Shown in pieces: positions 4,248 through 45,153 of a stretch of DNA of 64,000 nt. Each line of letters starts with the position of its first letter. The stretch's first letter is position 1. This stretch comes from Octopus sinensis (taxonomy: Eukaryota): contig NC_042998.1 of the NCBI RefSeq assembly GCF_006345805.1, positions 137,454,001 through 137,518,000 of the forward strand. The letters are read 5' to 3'. Made by a program: the position numbers and the translations under genes. The notes beneath the pieces were generated by a model. It saw only the letters and a program-made list of their open reading frames with translations. It was not told where the DNA came from and searched no databases.

Positions 4248-5076
4248 TGGGTACAAGACCTAAAATGTTGATGCTCAACTGGTATTATTTTATCAATCTT
4301 GAGAGGATGAAAGCAGTCGACCTCAGCAAGCATAAAGACAGATGAAATACTGCTAATTATTTTGTCCCATGTGCCAACAATTTTACCAGCTCACCACTTG
4401 TTTACAGCTCAATGAACCAGAACAGATACCACAAGCCAACTTGTTTGACATGATGATGACTCTACCTGGTCAGAGGAATGAAAGACAAACTTGACCTCAG
4501 TGAAACTTAAACTCAGAGTATAACTACATACCTAAAGAGTCTGAAGGCAGTAGGGTAGCAGAAAGTGTGTAATATATTATCTTGATCCTATTTTGATGTT
4601 CCTAGCCCACTGCATTTGACTTTGTCAGTCGTCTTACCATGGTCTGTCAAAAACAGCCAAGTGCTGGAATCAAATTATGTCAGTCACACTTCTGCCTGAA
4701 AATGTATGGCACTGTGCCAAAATAAGAAATCTAATAAATTTCCACACTGGCAAAATGTCACAAAATGTATATAATGGTTTATAAGCCTGGCAGATGGCCA
4801 CAAATCTAGAATGAGTGATGAGATGGGGGAGGTCTGCTTAATTGAATTAAACTCAATATCTTAGTATTTATAGAATGTACTCTGGAATGATAAACAGCAA
4901 AGTTGACACTGGTGAGATATGAATTCCAAATGTGAAGACTTATAAATATAATTGCAGAGTATTTTCTCTGGAGCTCTGTTTCTGCCACCCCACTTCTTTA
5001 ATAATAATACTAACAAACAGGATTACCTTACATAGGATTAAAGGTTTAATAAATTTTGATTAAAATGATACAGGAT

Positions 5077-5328
5077 TCTACAGTTCTATATTTAAGAGAT
5101 GAGGAATTATGTACATTATTTACATTCGACGGATATTTGTCCTCATCTTGTTTATTGTTAATAATAATAATAATGATAATAATAATAATAACACCGAAAA
5201 ATACCTTAGGAATGAGAACCCAGGTTCGAAATTTCCCCAAGACACTTGAAGCAGGCTGGAGAATATATCAGCCGAAACATTGTGTTAACAACAAACAAGA
5301 TGAGGATAAATATCCATTGAATGTAAAT
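5077..5328. mobile_element. Short palindromic non-autonomous Penelope pLTR derivative (inverted tail + (AAT)n + plus-strand pLTR with decayed HHR)
   Basis: Matches 24835-24994. Arms are inverted. Perfect 13-bp flanking direct repeat AATGATACAGGAT at 5064-5076 and 5329-5341 (TSD). Confidence 0.85.
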
Positions 5329-5474
5329 AATGATACAGGATAGTTGAACTAGATTTAAACGGATTTTAAGTTTGTAAATTTACTCCCTATACTTAGGAGG
5401 ATCAGCATGTGATTACCAAGTGAGTGGTAAGAAAATATATTCTCCCTATATTTAGTGTAATGTTGGGCTTGTGA

Positions 5475-19304: not shown

Positions 19305-21379
19305 CACTGGTCAACACAATTTCTTCTTTGCTAATTTTGGGGTGCTGAATCCAGAAATGACATCTATTTTCTCCCATCACATCAGGTTTGGGCTGTATAA
19401 AAAACCATTTTTTTTTTTTAATCACAATTTTTGACCAAAAATGCTATTGTATCCTGATATTTCTAAATACTATTTTTACTTCTTCAAACTATAACAATGC
19501 AAATTGGCATTGAAACAAACACTATAAACATTACTGTTAGGCTGTTTGCTCATTTAACAAAGAAAAAAATTAAAAGTAATGCCATTTTTAACAGATGAAC
19601 CTGACAATCCCAAGTGGTCCTTTATTGTGATACTAAAAGCTGTATAATCAGAAATTTGTAGATGGAATTACCACCAGGTAGACTTCACACAAAACAATAA
19701 CAAATTCTTTCTTTTGTGATTTATGAATTTTGTTTGTTGTCACATTGACAGGAGCGCCTAAACACATCGAATTCAGAAGACAGTGATTGGCTTTTTATGA
19801 TGTCATTGTTCTCTCTGATTGGTTGTCATTGTTCTCTTTGCATTCCACCGCCTCTGAATCAATGCATTGCAATCAGTGTGTTTAAATATTACTGAACTCA
19901 CTGTATTTAGGCACACCTCACATTGACTGGGAAATAGTTACTTTTGTCAGAATCATTAGAACATCTATTAGCATTATAGGAAAAGTTTAGTATTCCTTGC
20001 TAGTAGTAGATTCTGCTGGGATATGATGTTGTTCAAGTTTGTAGGAATACAATGAAAAATTTGTGTGGATATGAATGATCATACTTTATCATTTTCATAT
20101 ATTTAGAAAAGAAATAAATATGGTATCCTCAAGGTACTGTACAAATGATCCAGATTTGTTCTGCTACACTTGTGGAGAGTTTACATTCAAAGAAAATAGA
20201 AAACAAATCAATGATTTCTAAGAGACGGCCTACTACATGTATTTCAATATTAAACTTGGAGATCAGGACAAGTCATGGGCGTCACACATCATTTGCAAGT
20301 CATGCAAGGAGAGTATACGCCTGTGGACAAAAGGTACTCAAACCTCCCTTAAATTTAGGATTCCAGTGATATGGCATGAACTGAAGAATCATCACGATGA
20401 TTGCTACTTTTGCATGGTTAGTTTGGTTGAATTCAACAAGAAGAACAGAAAGAAAATATCCTACCTCTCCATTCTCTCTGCTATTCGGCCCATACCACAT
20501 TCTGAACATTTTCTAGCTCCAGTTTTCAAGGGATTTGCTGATATTCCAGTTCCCGCTGTAATCACACGACTTGCACAAGAACTAGAGTACAAGATGACTG
20601 AAAGTGATTCTGACCCAGATCTTGATAATGCCATTCAAGCTTACAGTGCTTTTGACTGTTTTGAATCAGCAAATGAACCAAAACTGTTCAATCAAAATGA
20701 ACTGAGGGACTTAATTCAAGACCTGAATTTACCAAAAGAGTTAGCAGAATTGTTAGCATCATGCCTTCGTAAGAAAAATTTGTTAGCAGCTAAAACAAAT
20801 GTCACTTTCTACTGCAACTGAGATGCTGAGTTCACCCCATCCTTTGAACAAAACAACGATCTTGTGTTTTGTAAAGAAATTGAACAGTTACTTCTTAGAT
20901 TGGGCATTGATGAATATGATGCTTGTTATTTATCAATACTTCAAAGTGCAGCTTGAAGTGTGTACTTCTACTCAACACAAACATGTATGCTTCCATACTG
21001 ATTGGGCACTCCACTACACTCAAAGAAAAGTATGAGCCGATAAAACAGGTGATGGAAAGTATTAACTACTCCAGTCATAAGTGGATTGATTTAAAAATGG
21101 TAAACTTTTTACTTGGACAACAAGATCTAACGATCTTGAATAATGTTGTAGACCATTTGAAATATACTTTGCATTGATTTGCAATATCAACATTATCCAA
21201 ACAATAATCCATAAAATAGTAAAAACTAGCCGATTTTTACAAAAATGGCTAAAAACAAGTAAAGTAGATGTGATGGGTTAAAATGGTTGTGATTTTCAGA
21301 ATCAGCATGCTCAATATGATATATTTCACCTAAAATATACCCAAGCAGAGGACTAAAGTTGTTTTTTTTTTTACCAGTG
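19305..21379 (+). mobile_element. Chapaev3-type (CMC superfamily) DNA transposon, internally deleted
   Basis: Termini CACTGGT...ACCAGTG, 3-bp TAA TSD (19302-04, 21380-82), subterminal inverted blocks (gctgaatccagaaat/attttcagaatcagc; cccatcacatc/gatgtgatggg). Encodes a transposase relic. Confidence 0.8.
20120..21125 (+). pseudogene. Chapaev3-like transposase pseudogene (N-terminal Zn-binding region to the DLK...LLGQQ motif)
   Basis: MVSSRYCTNDPDLFCYTCGEF...*...LGDQDKSWASHIICKSC...WHELKNHHDDCYFC...FNQNELRDLIQDLNLPKELAELLAS...FINTSKCSLKCVLL...DLKMVNFLLGQQ. In-frame stops and frameshifts; C-terminal half missing. Confidence 0.8.
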
Positions 21380-22108: not shown

Positions 22109-22523
22109 GGCTTAAAATATATTCACTGTTGACAGGCAAGATACTGCAGTTTTTGTCAAAGATAAATCTCTTATAAGTGTACTGTGTTAAAAACACAATA
22201 TATATATTAGGAGGAAGAAAAAATTGCAGGTCCCTTCTTTCTACTATGTTTGAAATTTTGGCTCTTTGTCTAAATGTATCATTGTTGTGTCTTTTCTGTA
22301 TTTCCATGCTCATTGCACTGATGAATTTTCTGATTTAGTACATTCTGTCAAGACTTTTAACTTATTATTTACATTTGACGGATATTTGTCCTCATCTTGT
22401 TTGTTGTTAACACAACATTTTAGCTGATATACCCTCCAGCTTTCATCAAGTTTTCTTGGAAATTTCGAACCTGGGTTCTCATTCCTAAGGTATTTTTCGA
22501 AGATTTTTATTATCATTATTTTT

Positions 22524-22599
22524 CAGGTCTCTGCTTGGAAATCGAACTTGGAATCTTGGGGTTAGTAGCCCATGCTCTTAACCACTACGCCATATGCCC
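22524..22599 (-). promoter_or_regulatory. tRNA-like Pol III cassette (A and B boxes) inside the Penelope 3' pLTR
   Basis: GGGCATA TGGCGTAGTGG (A box) TTAAGAGCAT GGG-CTACTAA-CCC (anticodon-like stem-loop) CAAGATTCCAA GTTCGATT (B box), starting ~30 nt after the ORF stop. Repeated at 24749-24805 (+) and 41249-41180 (-). Confidence 0.75.
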
Positions 22600-22628
22600 G
22601 TGGACAATTATGGAGTAAATTTTAGGGC

Positions 22629-24256
22629 TTATAAATCTAATATTTTCCTATCCTTCCTTAATACCAGTTCCCATGTGCTCCTCATATCTGCACTTGGTCT
22701 GCTTAGGAGGTTGTTGTGTCTTAGCATATGTGCTGCTTCTTTTAGTTTATGTATTTTCCAGTGGTGTTCTCTGTCTATTATTTTAACTTCATCCCACAGA
22801 GGGAGGTGGTCTCCATTTATCCATACATGATCAGCTATACCCAATTTATCAATATCTCCTCCTTTCACAGCTTTGCAATGTTTGTCTACCCTTATTTTGA
22901 TGGGGTGGCATGTTCCGCCTTTGTAGAACCTACCACAGCTGCATGGGATGGACTACACGCAGTCTTTGGTCATATTCTCTTCTACTGGTGGTTTTACTAA
23001 AAGGAGATATTTGCAAATTGTTGTATTACTCTTGAATACTGTCCTGATGTCATATGGGCTGCATATGTTTTGTATCTTTTTAGAGAGGCCTTTCAAATAG
23101 GGTAGACAGACTGAGGACAGTTTATTGGTTTCATTCTCATTTTTCTTCATAATTGGAATGGATAGTATGTTTTTGGGGGTAGTTGATGCTTAATAGATTG
23201 TTATTGAACTTTATCATTTCTTCGTGATGTGTATCATGATTGCTACTTATATTCTTTGCTCAATGTTTTAGGCACTGAGCAGTCCTTCTCTTTACACTGT
23301 ATGGATGGTGGGAGTTGAAGTTTAGGTATCATCCAGTGAAGGTCAGCTTGCAGTATACGGATGTCCTGAATTTATAATTGGTGCATGTTATTAACACATC
23401 CAGGAACGCTAGCTGATTGTCTTTTTCCTTTTCCATTGTTAACTGTATGGATGACTTTATTGAGTTCATATGATCTAATAGCACTTGGACATCTTCCTGG
23501 TGGGGGCCAGAGTATAAAGGTGCCATCAACATATCGCAGCCATAGGGTTAGTTTTAGTGGTGTTGATCCTAAACCCAAATTCTCAGTATTCCATGTATGT
23601 ATTGGCTATTATCGGTGATAAGGGTGAACCCATAACTAAACCCTCTTCTTGTAAATATATATCAGTGTCCATACTGAAGTAGGTAGTTTCTACACTGAAG
23701 GATAACATTTCCATCAAGTTTCTTATTGGTATACTAGTGCATTCTTTTAGATGGGTGTCTATCACTTGTTTTTCTTGAATCACCGATAGTGCTTCACCAG
23801 TTGGTACTTTGGTGAACAGACTTATCACAACTAGACTCACTATCTGGTTGGATTCAATAGGAGTATCCTTGATCAATTCTGTAAAGTGGATAGAATTCTT
23901 CACGTACGATGTGGACTTTTCTGCTAATGGACTGATTATATCCACAAGGAAGCAGCTCAGTGGATGACATGCTGAACCTCTACAGCTCACTATAGGTCTT
24001 AATGGAATACCATCCTTGTGAATCTTAGGGAGACCGTACATGTGTGGTAGTTTACTGTAGTGTCAAGTCAGTTGTCTGTACTTCATTGGTGTAAAATGAT
24101 CTTTGTTCTTGATCAAGATTTGTGACAACTTCCTCTCTGTTTTCAGAGTTGGGTCTTTCTTTTCTTTTACTGTAGCTACCATCACTTGTAAAACTTGCCA
24201 ATTTTTCAGAGTAGTCAGACTTGTTCATCACCACTGTAGCATTTCCCTTGTCTACT
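22629..24256 (-). pseudogene. Penelope RT + GIY-YIG ORF, disrupted
   Basis: VDKGNATVVM (DKG motif); YGLPKIHKDGIPLRPIVS; SLFTKVP; QEEGLVMGSPLSPIIAN; WLRYVDGT (YVDD decayed); LAFLDVLI; linker LPYLKGLS; GIY-YIG region 'SIPCSCGRFYKG...IADHVW...KLKEA'. Multiple stops and frameshifts. Confidence 0.92.
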
Positions 24257-26005
24257 ATGTGAAAGGCCTCTCCAAAAAAATACAAAACATATGCGGCCCA
24301 TATGACATCAGGACAGTATTCAAGAGTATTACAACACTTTGCAAATATCTCCTTCAAGTAAAACCACCAGTAGAAGAGAATATGACCAAAGACTGCATGT
24401 AGTCCATCCCTGTGGTAGGTTATACAAAGGCGAAACATGCCATCCCCTCAAAATAAAAGTAGATGAATATCACAAAGCTGTGACATGAAGAGATATTGAT
24501 AAATCGGGTATAGCTGATCATGTATGGAAAAACAGACACCACTTCTCCCCGTGGGATGAAGTTAAAATAATAGACAGAGAATACTACTGGAAAATACATA
24601 AACTAAAAAAAGCAGCATATATGCTAGGACACAATAACCTCCTAAGCAGACCGAGTGCAGATATGAGTCGCATATGGGAACTGGTATTAAGGAAGGATAA
24701 GAAAATATTAGACTTATAAGCCCTAAAATTTACTCCATATTTGCCCACGGGCATATGGCGTAGTGGTGCTGGCTACTAACCCCAAGATTCCGAGTTCGAT
24801 TCCAGAATAATATTAATAATAATAATATCAAAAAATAACTTAAGAATGAGAACCCAGGTTTGAAATTTCCAAGAAAACTTGAAGGCTGGAGGGTATATCA
24901 GCCGAAAAGTTGTGTTAACAACAAACAAGATGAGGACAAATATCCGTCAAATGTAAATAATGTACATAATTCCTCATCTCTTAAATATAGAACTAAGTCA
25001 TTTAACTGTTTAGTATTCTAATCCAAATACTATACCAGTTTTATGTTCAAACTGGCCAGACCTGACCTCTCACACCTACCCTACAATGTCATTCTGAAAA
25101 TATACAATCACATCATTGAAATCTCAAAGCTAAGAGATGAGGCATGATTAATTCCAAAACAGCATGAATAAATAAGCATTAAATTTGACAGAAGGGTTAA
25201 ACATGTCACTCACTTCTCTTTCCAGGTACATTGTTTCTCTGTTGAGCTTCCTGTTAATCTTGAATCCTTTTATTTTTATAGCTTCTTTCCACAAGCTGCT
25301 GCTCTCAGGAACTCATTACCACCATTTTGTTTTCCTTTAGTCTATGATATTCACTTCTGTTTAGCTTTCTGTCAATGGACATTTTTTGAATTGGTAGGTC
25401 CCTTCTTTTGCTTTTCTGTAGTCTTTTATGTTACAGTGTCATTAAGCCTTGATTAGAACAAAAATGTTTTTTAAAAATTAATGGTATAAATGAAATGGTT
25501 CCAAGTAGAAACCAAACCTGGATTATTGACAAATATATTAGACTGGTTTTTAATTAATGAATCTGACAGTTATTTAAAACCAGTCCTAACTAAGCTAGAC
25601 TAGCTTTCTTTAATATACTGATTTATCAAGTTTACATTAGATATACCGTTTAAAGCAAAATATATTATAACCTCATAAATATTCGTAGCTCAGAATTTCA
25701 TTTTTCATGATACCACAATGCTGTAGAACAATTACATTATAGATTTAGATATATTTAAAAGCATTCTAGTAATGGTAATTATATTGTGCTCAACTTAATT
25801 ATTGGATTCTGATTTTCCTTAATTTCTGCTATATTGTTTTTTCTCAGCTATAACAGAAACTTCATCCAATAGTGGCATGTGATTTTTGTTTTTATATCAT
25901 AGATTGTTATATTATTCCTGGCATCTTAAACGAAAGGAGAAATATATATTTTGGCTATCTTTCAACATTTTTATCTCTTTCTATTCTAACATTGATTAGG
26001 TGTAC

Positions 26006-28399: not shown

Positions 28400-29050
28400 G
28401 TCAGAAACAACAAGACGCAGACGTAAAATATATATAACTACTTTATTCTCTTTCTTGGTAACAATAACAATAAGTGTGTTATCTGATGTCCTTGATTCTG
28501 GGCGCGCAAGGCTGAAAGTTAATAGATTGTAATATTTACAATGTCCAGCCGCTAAACCAGAAAGGGGTCAGCCGCTAAACCAGAAAGGGGTCAAGATGGC
28601 GTCGAACAGGGAAGTTGAATGTGGTCGGCAACAATTTGGTTAAAGGCATTCGGCCGACTGCTGCTATCAACCGGAGAGAATATATGCGTGACCGCCGCCT
28701 TCAATCGCTGGGTCCCAAGTCGCCGCTTGCTGCTGCTAGTGGTCAAACGTTCTACGACCCCCTTGCCTCGCTAACTACCACGATAGGCAAGCGGGTCGTG
28801 CTTCCGGTGGTTCGCGCATGTGCGAGAGGGCCCTTCCTTTCTCTGCCTTGGTAAAGGCACCAACACGCGCGAAATACAAATGGACGGTGCGCGAGCGCAC
28901 GCCGTTGTAGGATCACTACAAGTTTTTAGGAATAATAACCCCCATTTGGCTTATAAGATCTAGTTTATGTTTAAATCCAGTCCACAAAACCAAACAAGTT
29001 TGTTGCAATTGTAGTTAACTACATGGAACTGAATGGTCAAAATTGACCAG
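28400..29050. promoter_or_regulatory. CpG-rich housekeeping-type promoter region
   Basis: The most conspicuous CpG-rich island here that is not an obvious repeat. YY1 motif CAAGATGGCG (28592-601), ETS CTTCCGG (28801-07), NRF1-like GCGCATGTGCG (28814-24), E2F-like GCGCGAAA (28867-74), ACTACA motifs (28915-20, 29018-23). Confidence 0.65.
28546..28591. repeat. Perfect 23-bp tandem duplication CAGCCGCTAAACCAGAAAGGGGT x2
   Basis: 28546-28568 is identical to 28569-28591. Confidence 0.95.
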
Positions 29051-40976: not shown

Positions 40977-41290
40977 ATACAGTTCTATATTTAAGAGATG
41001 AGGAATTATGTACATTATATACATTATTTACATTCAACGGATATTTGTCCTCATTTTGTTTGTGGTTAACACAACGTTTCAGCTGATATACCCCCCAGCC
41101 TTCTTCAGGTGTCTTGGGGAAATTTTGAACCTGGGTTCTCATTCCTAAGGTATTTTCAATGTTATTATTATTATTATTCAGGTCACTTCTTGGAATCAAA
41201 CTCGGAATCTTGGGGTTAGTTGTGCTCTTAACCACTACACCATATGCCCGTGGGTATATGGCGTTGTGGTTAAGAACTCGGGCTACTAAT
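40977..41290 (-). mobile_element. SINE-like Penelope derivative: tRNA-like head + (AAT)n + HHR + pLTR tail, with inverted head fragment
   Basis: Colinear with 24745-24994. Starts ~4 nt upstream of the tRNA-like head (41249). Plus-strand inverted head at 41252-41290. Confidence 0.85.
41068..41113 (-). ncRNA. Minimal type I hammerhead ribozyme motif of the Penelope pLTR (best-preserved copy)
   Basis: GACAC-CTGAAGA-A-GGCTG(gggggtatat)CAGCT-GAAAC-GTT-GTGTT: stem I GACAC/GTGTT, stem II, palindromic A-CG-T stem III, GUU cleavage triplet. Decayed copies at 5241-5286, 22409-22455, 24875-24917. Confidence 0.75.
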
Positions 41291-44549: not shown

Positions 44550-45153
44550 GGAATTTGTATCTTTGTGGTACCAGTGCCGGTGGCACATAAGAAAACCATC
44601 CAAACGTGGCCGTAGCCAGTACCGCATCGACTGGCCTCCGTGCTGTGGGCACGTAACAAACACCATCCAATCATGGCCGTTCGCCAGCCTCGTCTGGCAC
44701 CTGTGTTAGTGGCACATAAAAATTAAAAACACCATCCAAGCGTGGCCGTTCGCCAGCCTCGTCTGACACCTGTGTCGGTGGCACATAAAAAAACACCATC
44801 CGAGCGTGGCCGTTCGCCAGCCTCGTCTGGCACCTGTATCGGTGGCACATAAAAAAACACCATCCGAGCGTGGCCGTTCGCCAGCCTCGTCTGGCACCTG
44901 TGTCGGTGGCACATAAAAAACACCATCCGAGCGTGGCCGTTCGCCAGCCTCATCTGGCACCTGTGTCGGTGGCACATAAAATCACCCACTACACTCTCGG
45001 AGTGGTTGGCGTTAGGAAGGACATCCAGCTGTAGAAACACTGCCAGATCTGACTGGCCTGGTGCAGCCTTCGGGCTCCCCAGACCCCAGTTGAACCGTCC
45101 AACCCATGCTAGCATGGAAAGCAGACGTTAAACGATGATGATGATGATGATGA
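44550..45153 (+). mobile_element. Young RTE-type 3' UTR/tail with five ~62-bp tandem repeats
   Basis: Units 'aaaaaacaccatccgagcgtggccgttcgccagcctcgtctggcacctgtgtcggtggcacat' at 44657-44976, CpGs retained, ends 'gacgttaaacgatgatgatgatg'. Confidence 0.85.

Follow-up and report, generated by a model that had tools for sequence, protein, structure and literature searches.

A Penelope-like element of octopus whose terminal repeats open with a tRNA-derived head

This study concerns a 64,000-nucleotide stretch of the Octopus sinensis genome (assembly GCF_006345805.1, contig NC_042998.1, positions 137,454,001 to 137,518,000), hereafter the window, and a Penelope-like element (PLE) family of which it holds several decayed pieces. 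The pseudo-long terminal repeat (pLTR) of these elements opens with a tRNA-like head, and our analysis suggests that the promoter of the PLE is probably this head, acting as a tRNA-derived unit of RNA polymerase III (Pol III). Family copies (L numbers) were drawn from the loci of a genome of 2.72 Gb.

The head and the element it opens

In 28 of 30 copies picked by the end of their GIY-YIG domain, the head was found by eye, whole or partial, after the stop codon; the two others had lost it through an internal deletion. It is thus fixed in the autonomous family, as an initial annotation of the window had supposed, and does not result from a one-off insertion of a short interspersed element (SINE). 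In 30 loci picked by the head, the same leader follows it (a remnant only in L365 and L368); 20 of them reach the PLE body within 420 nt, and 10 end in or near the (AAT)n tract.

We attribute the head to a tRNA because a profile of 129 heads matches tRNAs of the host genome itself, namely Ser-GCT, Arg-TCT and Thr-TGT (E 8e-4 to 3e-3). In the majority sequence of these copies the A box lies at +8 and the B box 45 nt further on, and both agree with what we take to be the usual consensus. In the column table of the same copies, the T and anticodon stems keep 2-3 of 5 pairs. Judged from this profile, the head is tRNA-derived, with intact boxes and a broken cloverleaf. Naming the parent tRNA was tried and given up, the three candidates being tied among the 7 amino-acid types of host tRNA compared. 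Single copies escape standard tools, and detection took the profile: ARAGORN called no tRNA in the window and, at default settings, none in 200 family loci, where relaxed settings called 5 heads (4 distinct sequences); Rfam gave no tRNA or hammerhead match on the window or on two single copies.

Positions along the element are given on a natural copy, L056 counted from its base 381 (ref). The stop codon lies at about 1590, the tRNA +1 at 1620, the A box at 1627, the B box at 1672, (AAT)n at 1694-1720, an ATG at 1739, the hammerhead core at 1775-1810, and two 3' ends at 1856-1865 and 1888. The pLTR therefore reads as head, (AAT)n, ATG, a hammerhead within the first codons, and a tail whose two 3' ends fall about 120 and 150 nt inside the open reading frame (ORF). 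In natural copies where a pLTR is joined to the N-terminal domain, the frame of this ATG stays open across the hammerhead and the two tail ends as far as that domain, the open run covering 160 codons in L340, L342 and L352 and more than 120 in L345. The peptide encoded by the hammerhead is shared with P0004, the closest full-length homologue, and is missing in the 29 other long homologues of the 30 compared. Because the ATG follows (AAT)n and the ribozyme lies inside the ORF, we regard the module as the 5' end of the element's own mRNA, and not as the accessory small-RNA unit that had been suggested at first.

Two side observations concern the leaders on either side of the head. The stretch from stop codon to head repeats the head start imperfectly and in inverted orientation (e.g. 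window 24738-24758 and 22590-22612), and is perhaps the relic of a fold-back copy that joined head to ORF end. Other repeats insert into the (AAT)n leader: the same LINE-like (long interspersed element-like) and SINE-like ends split head from tail, and interrupted copies are L071, L075, L141, L146, L073, L130, L140, L059, L372, L383 and L385. By their motifs, we take these ends to be Dong/R4-like.

The features listed for minimal PLE hammerheads (PMC4209133) were compared with 248 tail units. The CUGANGA and GAAA core, the extra nucleotide before G10.1-C11.1, the short stem I and the palindromic 15.2-16.2 are the majority letters, and the motif is fully intact in 96 units; the cleavage triplet is GUU. 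N7 is the sole variable core column outside CpG, and a subfamily difference sits on this free position. Minimum-free-energy folds of monomer and dimer did not yield the full active hammerhead fold. The ribozyme is internal, is predicted to need a dimer, and does not set the ends of copies.

A natural open segment of 551 aa encodes a reverse transcriptase (RT) followed by a C-terminal GIY-YIG domain in a single ORF. Unnamed homologues share 54-68% identity with it, and named proteins from beetle and coral 39-43%. The best homologues carry PF00078, some also PF01541; a Pfam search with the segment itself gave no match, and a PDB search no significant one. The CxxC linker between RT and endonuclease was found by eye to be missing in the family protein P0001 and present in P0122, from the control family used below. 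Because this zinc-finger linker is a feature of Neptune and Nematis (PMC8557442), its absence points to a Penelope/Poseidon-type PLE, an assignment made by linker absence and structure, not by an RT tree. Locus L181 holds a pLTR-ORF-pLTR element whose first base lies 2 nt ahead of the tRNA +1.

The family is large. A 34-nt tail pattern has 1310 exact matches in the genome (control 0) and a 30-nt head pattern has 773; since only 2 of 91 independently picked tails are identical to the tail pattern, units should number roughly in the tens of thousands. Divergence of copies from the column majority is 20-26% at CpG and 4-5% elsewhere, and we therefore consider the family methylated and not very young. 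No intact full ORF was found among the 200 family loci scanned, and when sister families were sought (59-77% protein identity), what came up were decayed copies of this very family and no sisters. The sequence is present in contigs of five organisms. As a separate matter, a near-full-length insertion recurs with identical flanks on four contigs (L260, L261, L262, L265), either through segmental duplication or through redundant assembly.

Starts of copies and nature of the short ones

The first 100 listed of the 1310 tail matches were resolved into 90 insertions, L089 being dropped as a duplicate of L088. The most upstream position lies in the ORF for 12 of them (ref 615-1511), at the head start for 41 (ref 1599-1624, including three with a short inverted head piece), inside the head for 6, in (AAT)n for 18 and in the tail for 13. 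The (AAT)n ends do not enter the head count, since by eye about 10 of them abut the 3' ends of other repeats inserted there; nor do the tail and inside-head ends, which stop short of the head start. Thus 53 of the 90 insertions reach the head and 41 of these 53 start within the 26 nt around its +1, while the ends of the 12 that run into the ORF are spread over ~900 nt. From the truncation rate in the ORF, about 5% would be expected at the head start (P about 1e-41). The predicted pile-up of 5' ends at the head is therefore real and is not random truncation. Full-length and short copies alike start within ~7 nt of the tRNA +1, many of them retaining 2-7 nt upstream of it. The head-picked sample gives a similar ratio (4 of 30 ORF-linked, and 1 more with an ORF-side leader), and among six 5' pLTR copies that reach the head, four start there (L181, L340, L342, L346). 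The 30 best matches of a first query, 28 of which start at the head, were set aside for query bias.

A fresh fold-back was present at 44 ORF-less head ends, centred just before +1, an arrangement expected when cDNA runs off the end of an RNA. Two heads flagged with an ORF-side leader look ORF-linked, and 46 other heads have no fold-back.

Short copies are about 3 to 6 times as numerous as ORF-linked ones, and diverge slightly less (4.0% against 5.2%). They had been proposed to be a SINE or retrozyme driven by the PLE. Their insertion marks are indeed those of a PLE: they carry both 3' ends, target site duplications (TSDs) of at least 9 nt, mostly 10-14, occur in 30 of the 90 insertions (controls 0.8%), and 53 of the 90 include an inverted part. 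A separate lineage, by contrast, did not hold up. The same two linked subfamilies are found in short and ORF-linked copies, and no variant is private to the short ones (88 short, 64 ORF-linked heads). No head-to-tail array of full units occurs in the 90 insertions, where the two tandem flags are one alignment overlap and one partial tandem; at most 4 of the 90 start near the predicted hammerhead cut site, a count made with a sampling pattern that begins just downstream of that site. On the strength of the shared marks and subfamilies, we interpret the short copies as solo pLTRs. As far as their sequences tell, they are SINE-like in behaviour, being short, tRNA-headed and copied by the PLE protein, without forming a lineage apart.

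One solo pLTR (L110:1943-3530, contig C1, ~141.743-141.745 Mb) is joined, in inverted orientation, to the 5' end of an element belonging to the second PLE family described below. It is seen in 1 of 30 such copies, and reflects either a template switch or a chance insertion.

Polymerase and competing explanations

If the head is a Pol III promoter, a long transcript should meet no terminator, and the absence of oligo-T was predicted before it was counted. In the majority columns of the element (median depth 80), runs of four T number 0 in 2620-2740, for 4.8-5.0 expected (P about 0.007), and runs of four A number 28-30. By comparison, the control PLE ORF has 11 four-T runs in 2060 columns, and single LINE and PLE ORFs taken from the loci have 22 in 8.5 kb. 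The absence of T runs is consistent with transcription of the whole element by Pol III; it is suggestive, not decisive.

In the mechanism that we propose, every pLTR would fire. A 3' or solo pLTR would yield a ~270-nt RNA plus flank and a 5' pLTR a long RNA; since four-T runs are missing from the sense strand, Pol III could transcribe this long RNA to its end. Judging by the anole PLE (PMC11167929), the RT/GIY-YIG protein would start copying inside the RNA, at the tail, so that the 3' flank would be lost; the cDNA would then run off the RNA's 5' end and fold back, leaving head-centred hairpins. The uncapped RNA would be translated behind its A-rich (AAC/AAT)n leader. Pol III use of the head as promoter is the part of this scheme that we favour, with moderate confidence. 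That the whole coding element is transcribed by Pol III is a more tentative proposal, for which we would not quite argue. We hold equally loosely to the history it would imply, in which a PLE took a tRNA promoter, purged oligo-T from 2.7 kb, had its uncapped RNA translated and shed solo pLTRs.

Several observations weigh against a Pol III promoter. The control used here is a second PLE family of the same genome, with a zinc-finger linker and no tRNA head in the 3' regions examined. In this family 24 of 29 copies are short, and their starts also cluster (12 in one 26-nt window, 18 within 56 nt); a pile-up of starts hence marks the start of an RNA and not the polymerase, and cannot serve as the proof of Pol III that was first sought in it. 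The T-run result also loses force: one control LINE ORF has no T run in 1.2 kb, a codon-aware null over 549 codons gives P 0.17 with the element's own codon usage and 0.04 with a generic third-position T content, avoidance of TTT among Phe codons has P 0.09, and runs of four G are missing too (P about 0.04). An mRNA made by Pol III would be uncapped, and its translation would be a difficulty. Moreover, two of the six 5' pLTR copies reaching the head (L344, L359) are read-through copies that continue from an ORF end lying upstream, so some RNAs do begin upstream of a head; the ORF/head junction can fold as a hairpin (-7 to -14 kcal/mol); and the tail pattern favoured a variant that is found more often in short copies (51 of 76, against 19 of 46). 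In three raw RNA-seq runs of one study on an organism that carries the sequence, thousands of reads match the family, equally on both strands, about 70% of them run into unlike flanks, and no pile of read starts was seen, although fragmented cDNA may hide one. This pattern fits passive inclusion in host transcripts and is neutral on a Pol III RNA. What remains specific to Pol III is that starts coincide with the tRNA +1, that the boxes are intact, and the outcome of the T-run count.

As an observation on the control family itself (L305-L334, L395-L424), it gave 1906 first-look candidates, its copies are 93-97% identical and insert into (TA)n, and its short copies start just before a hammerhead-like motif.

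The three features specific to Pol III bear on the alternative in which Pol II makes the RNA from the head, which would be a captured SINE head with vestigial boxes, the short copies being ordinary solo pLTRs. Such a reading is unlikely, but several points favour it: the headless control shows a similar excess of short copies and similar clustering, an internal TATA-less promoter is described in Penelope of D. virilis (PMC2377424) and a Pol II-type promoter in Chlamys-3 (PMC8557442), a capped mRNA would account for translation, and the codon-aware version of the T-run test is weak. It leaves aside, however, that starts fall within ~7 nt of a tRNA +1, that the boxes were kept while the stems decayed, and that the control has 11 four-T runs in 2.06 kb where the element has none in 2.7 kb. 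Somewhat less credible is the idea that no RNA ends at the head at all, and that the junction hairpin stalls the RT or snaps the cDNA back on a read-through RNA. Predictions do place a hairpin at the junction and on the cDNA, fold-backs centred on this hairpin make up many of the 5' ends, and read-through copies occur. Yet most ends lie at or beyond the loop, whereas a stall should leave them at the 3' foot of the stem; the hairpin is modest, and many ends, at 46 heads, have no fold-back; intact boxes and missing T runs are left unexplained. To our knowledge PLE RTs have no RNase H, and the cDNA end should therefore stay paired with the RNA until run-off, which also speaks against a snap-back.

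Processing could also place ends at the head, if RNase P cut long Pol II transcripts at the tRNA +1 and the head were a processing signal. Ends do cluster around +1, the acceptor stem can pair 5 of 7 positions in one register, and relaxed ARAGORN recognises the few heads mentioned above; but with 2-3 of 5 pairs in the T stem, no tRNA seen by default ARAGORN or Rfam, and many copies keeping 2-7 nt upstream of +1, we find this improbable. We give even less credit to an independent Pol III lineage of SINE or retrozyme type, with its own source genes and a cycle of self-cleavage and circular RNA, parasitising the PLE. The higher number and slightly lower divergence of short copies, the hammerheads kept intact in 96 of 248 tail units, and the possibility that short copies keeping the promoter act as secondary sources would suit it; the sharing of both subfamilies by both classes, without private variants, the lack of full-unit arrays and the few ends at the cut site would not. 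We regard a promoter function of the tRNA-derived head, used by Pol III, as the most likely explanation.

The window copies and known systems

In the window, the 22-25 kb insertion consists of a minus-strand copy fused to an inverted arm, each ending at a different family 3' end. The minus-strand part (22364-24260) is a 5'-truncated copy with a remnant of RT and GIY-YIG and the 3' pLTR, which stops at the first tail end (RVT_1 E 4e-4, under the Pfam cut-off). Its ORF (22629-24260, minus strand), with RT, then a C-terminal GIY-YIG and no zinc-finger linker, is broken by stops and frameshifts and ends in a stop codon at 22629-22631. On the same strand, the head (22526-22599) has its +1 at 22599, 29 nt past the stop codon, an A box at 22582-22592 (TGGCGTAGTGG), a B box at 22540-22547 and the GGG-CTACTAA-CCC loop; it is followed by the (AAT/AAC)n leader that runs from head to start codon (about 22500-22523), by the ATG at 22480-22482, which in copies with a pLTR ahead of the N-terminal domain opens the ORF, and by a decayed minimal hammerhead (22409-22454) with C3 and G12 altered. 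The inverted arm (24249-24994, plus strand) carries the GIY-YIG end, a stop codon at 24717-24719 and the pLTR to the second tail end. Its head (24749-24805, plus strand; +1 at 24749, A box 24756-24766, B box 24794-24801) has a 7-nt deletion between A box and loop, giving TGG-CTACTAA-CCC, and a 3' deletion, and its hammerhead remnant (about 24873-24916, plus strand) lacks the 5' core. A probable decayed TSD flanks the insertion, 22350-22362 and 24995-25007 (plus strand) being identical at 11 of 13 letters. An A-box plus B-box pattern matches once in the window, in the right arm (the left arm is missed), against 0.07 per shuffle. The cassette described at first in both arms is thus present as to boxes, loop, (AAT)n and tail, with a 7-nt loss on the right and broken hammerhead cores; the long copy, being 5'-truncated and broken, is a dead copy rather than the master element it had been taken for.

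Two other pieces had been noted as shorter derivatives. The ORF-less module near 41 kb is indeed a solo pLTR (40977-41251, minus strand), with head (+1 at 41249), (AAT)n, an ATG at 41140-41142, hammerhead and both tail ends, but it starts with a fold-back, the first 38 nt of the head inverted (41252-41289, plus strand), and its B box has a C-to-T change. It holds the only intact hammerhead among the five tail units of the window, a minimal type I motif at 41068-41113 (minus strand) with predicted cleavage after 41073; the descriptor matched at 41108 and gave 0 matches in 100 shuffles of the window. The core is broken in both 22-25 kb arms and in the 5-kb copy. The latter is headless, as reported, and its 13-bp TSD (5064-5076 and 5329-5341) is real, but it is an inverted pair of tails (5077-5331), in which an inverted tail (5077-5161) is joined to a forward (AAT)n-hammerhead-tail segment (5166-5331).

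Elsewhere in the window, a decayed coding-like stretch with several CxxC motifs (20120-21130, plus strand; open segment 20222-20821) gave no Pfam match at E 0.1, and may resemble a DNA-transposon protein. Five GC-rich tandem units of 63-69 bp each lie at 44624-44981, and a GC- and CpG-rich segment with a short direct repeat near its start stands out from AT-rich surroundings at 28520-28930.

Among known elements, the closest in plan are Penelope/Poseidon PLEs (PMC8557442, PMC4209133), with RT and C-terminal GIY-YIG, no CxxC linker, a pLTR-ORF-pLTR layout, inverted 5' arms, a tail of 30-40 bp and a minimal hammerhead. PAc of the green anole (PMC11167929) also has a hammerhead overlapping the ORF start and, in common with the octopus family, two 3' ends ~30 nt apart, 110-150 nt into the ORF; in PAc, RT begins at two internal sites of the RNA, and insertion does not require cleavage (PMC11167929). 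What sets the octopus family apart is a pLTR that opens with A and B boxes in a tRNA-derived head, and a sense strand without four-T runs. PLE promoters described in the papers cited here are of Pol II type (Penelope, PMC2377424; Chlamys-3, PMC8557442) or unmapped, and we found no precedent in the literature for a PLE with a tRNA-derived pLTR, a search that left Repbase and Dfam outside its scope, where an entry may exist.

Pol III promoters in mobile elements are treated as a sign of non-coding parasites, e.g. SINEs. In tRNA-derived SINEs, a tRNA-like head keeps its boxes while its stems decay, 5' ends lie at the head, and the RT is foreign. Here, unlike in those SINEs, head and body form the 5' end of the partner itself, a PLE, and no chimera with the 3' tail of a LINE; a separate lineage is lacking. 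If true, a PLE with a tRNA promoter would be an exception to the general view and possibly a natural case of an mRNA made by Pol III. It would also provide a mapped start site in a class where promoters are known for very few members, and a direct path from an autonomous element to SINE-like repeats; in practice, a large family of this kind could be mistaken for a tRNA SINE in annotation.

A small-RNA-derived Pol III promoter inside a terminal repeat is known from the TRIMs (miniature retrotransposons with terminal repeats) Cassandra, Helenus and Ajax (PMC10886601). These are non-autonomous LTR elements, whose autonomous partners are argued to require Pol II (PMC10886601), whereas in octopus the ORF-bearing PLE itself carries the head. 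Animal non-LTR retrozymes (PMC7229834; bioRxiv 10.64898/2026.07.22.740005) are likewise short, ORF-less, hammerhead-bearing and related to pLTRs. They are defined by tandem units and circular RNA, while the octopus copies are dispersed, as monomers or inverted pairs, and have a tRNA head at their start; no mention of Pol III was found in the available parts of these two papers. The schistosome repeats Sm-alpha and Sj-alpha (PMC6765202) resemble the octopus unit in composition, being short repeats in which a hammerhead follows a Pol III-type promoter. They are non-coding, often tandem and released by the ribozyme from multimers, with no link to an autonomous PLE given in the available text. The octopus unit differs from Sm-alpha in being monomeric, in forming the 5' end of a PLE that codes for protein, and in its minimal ribozyme, which lies internally, and elements of this kind would offer a possible origin for repeats of the Sm-alpha type, which combine such a promoter with a hammerhead.

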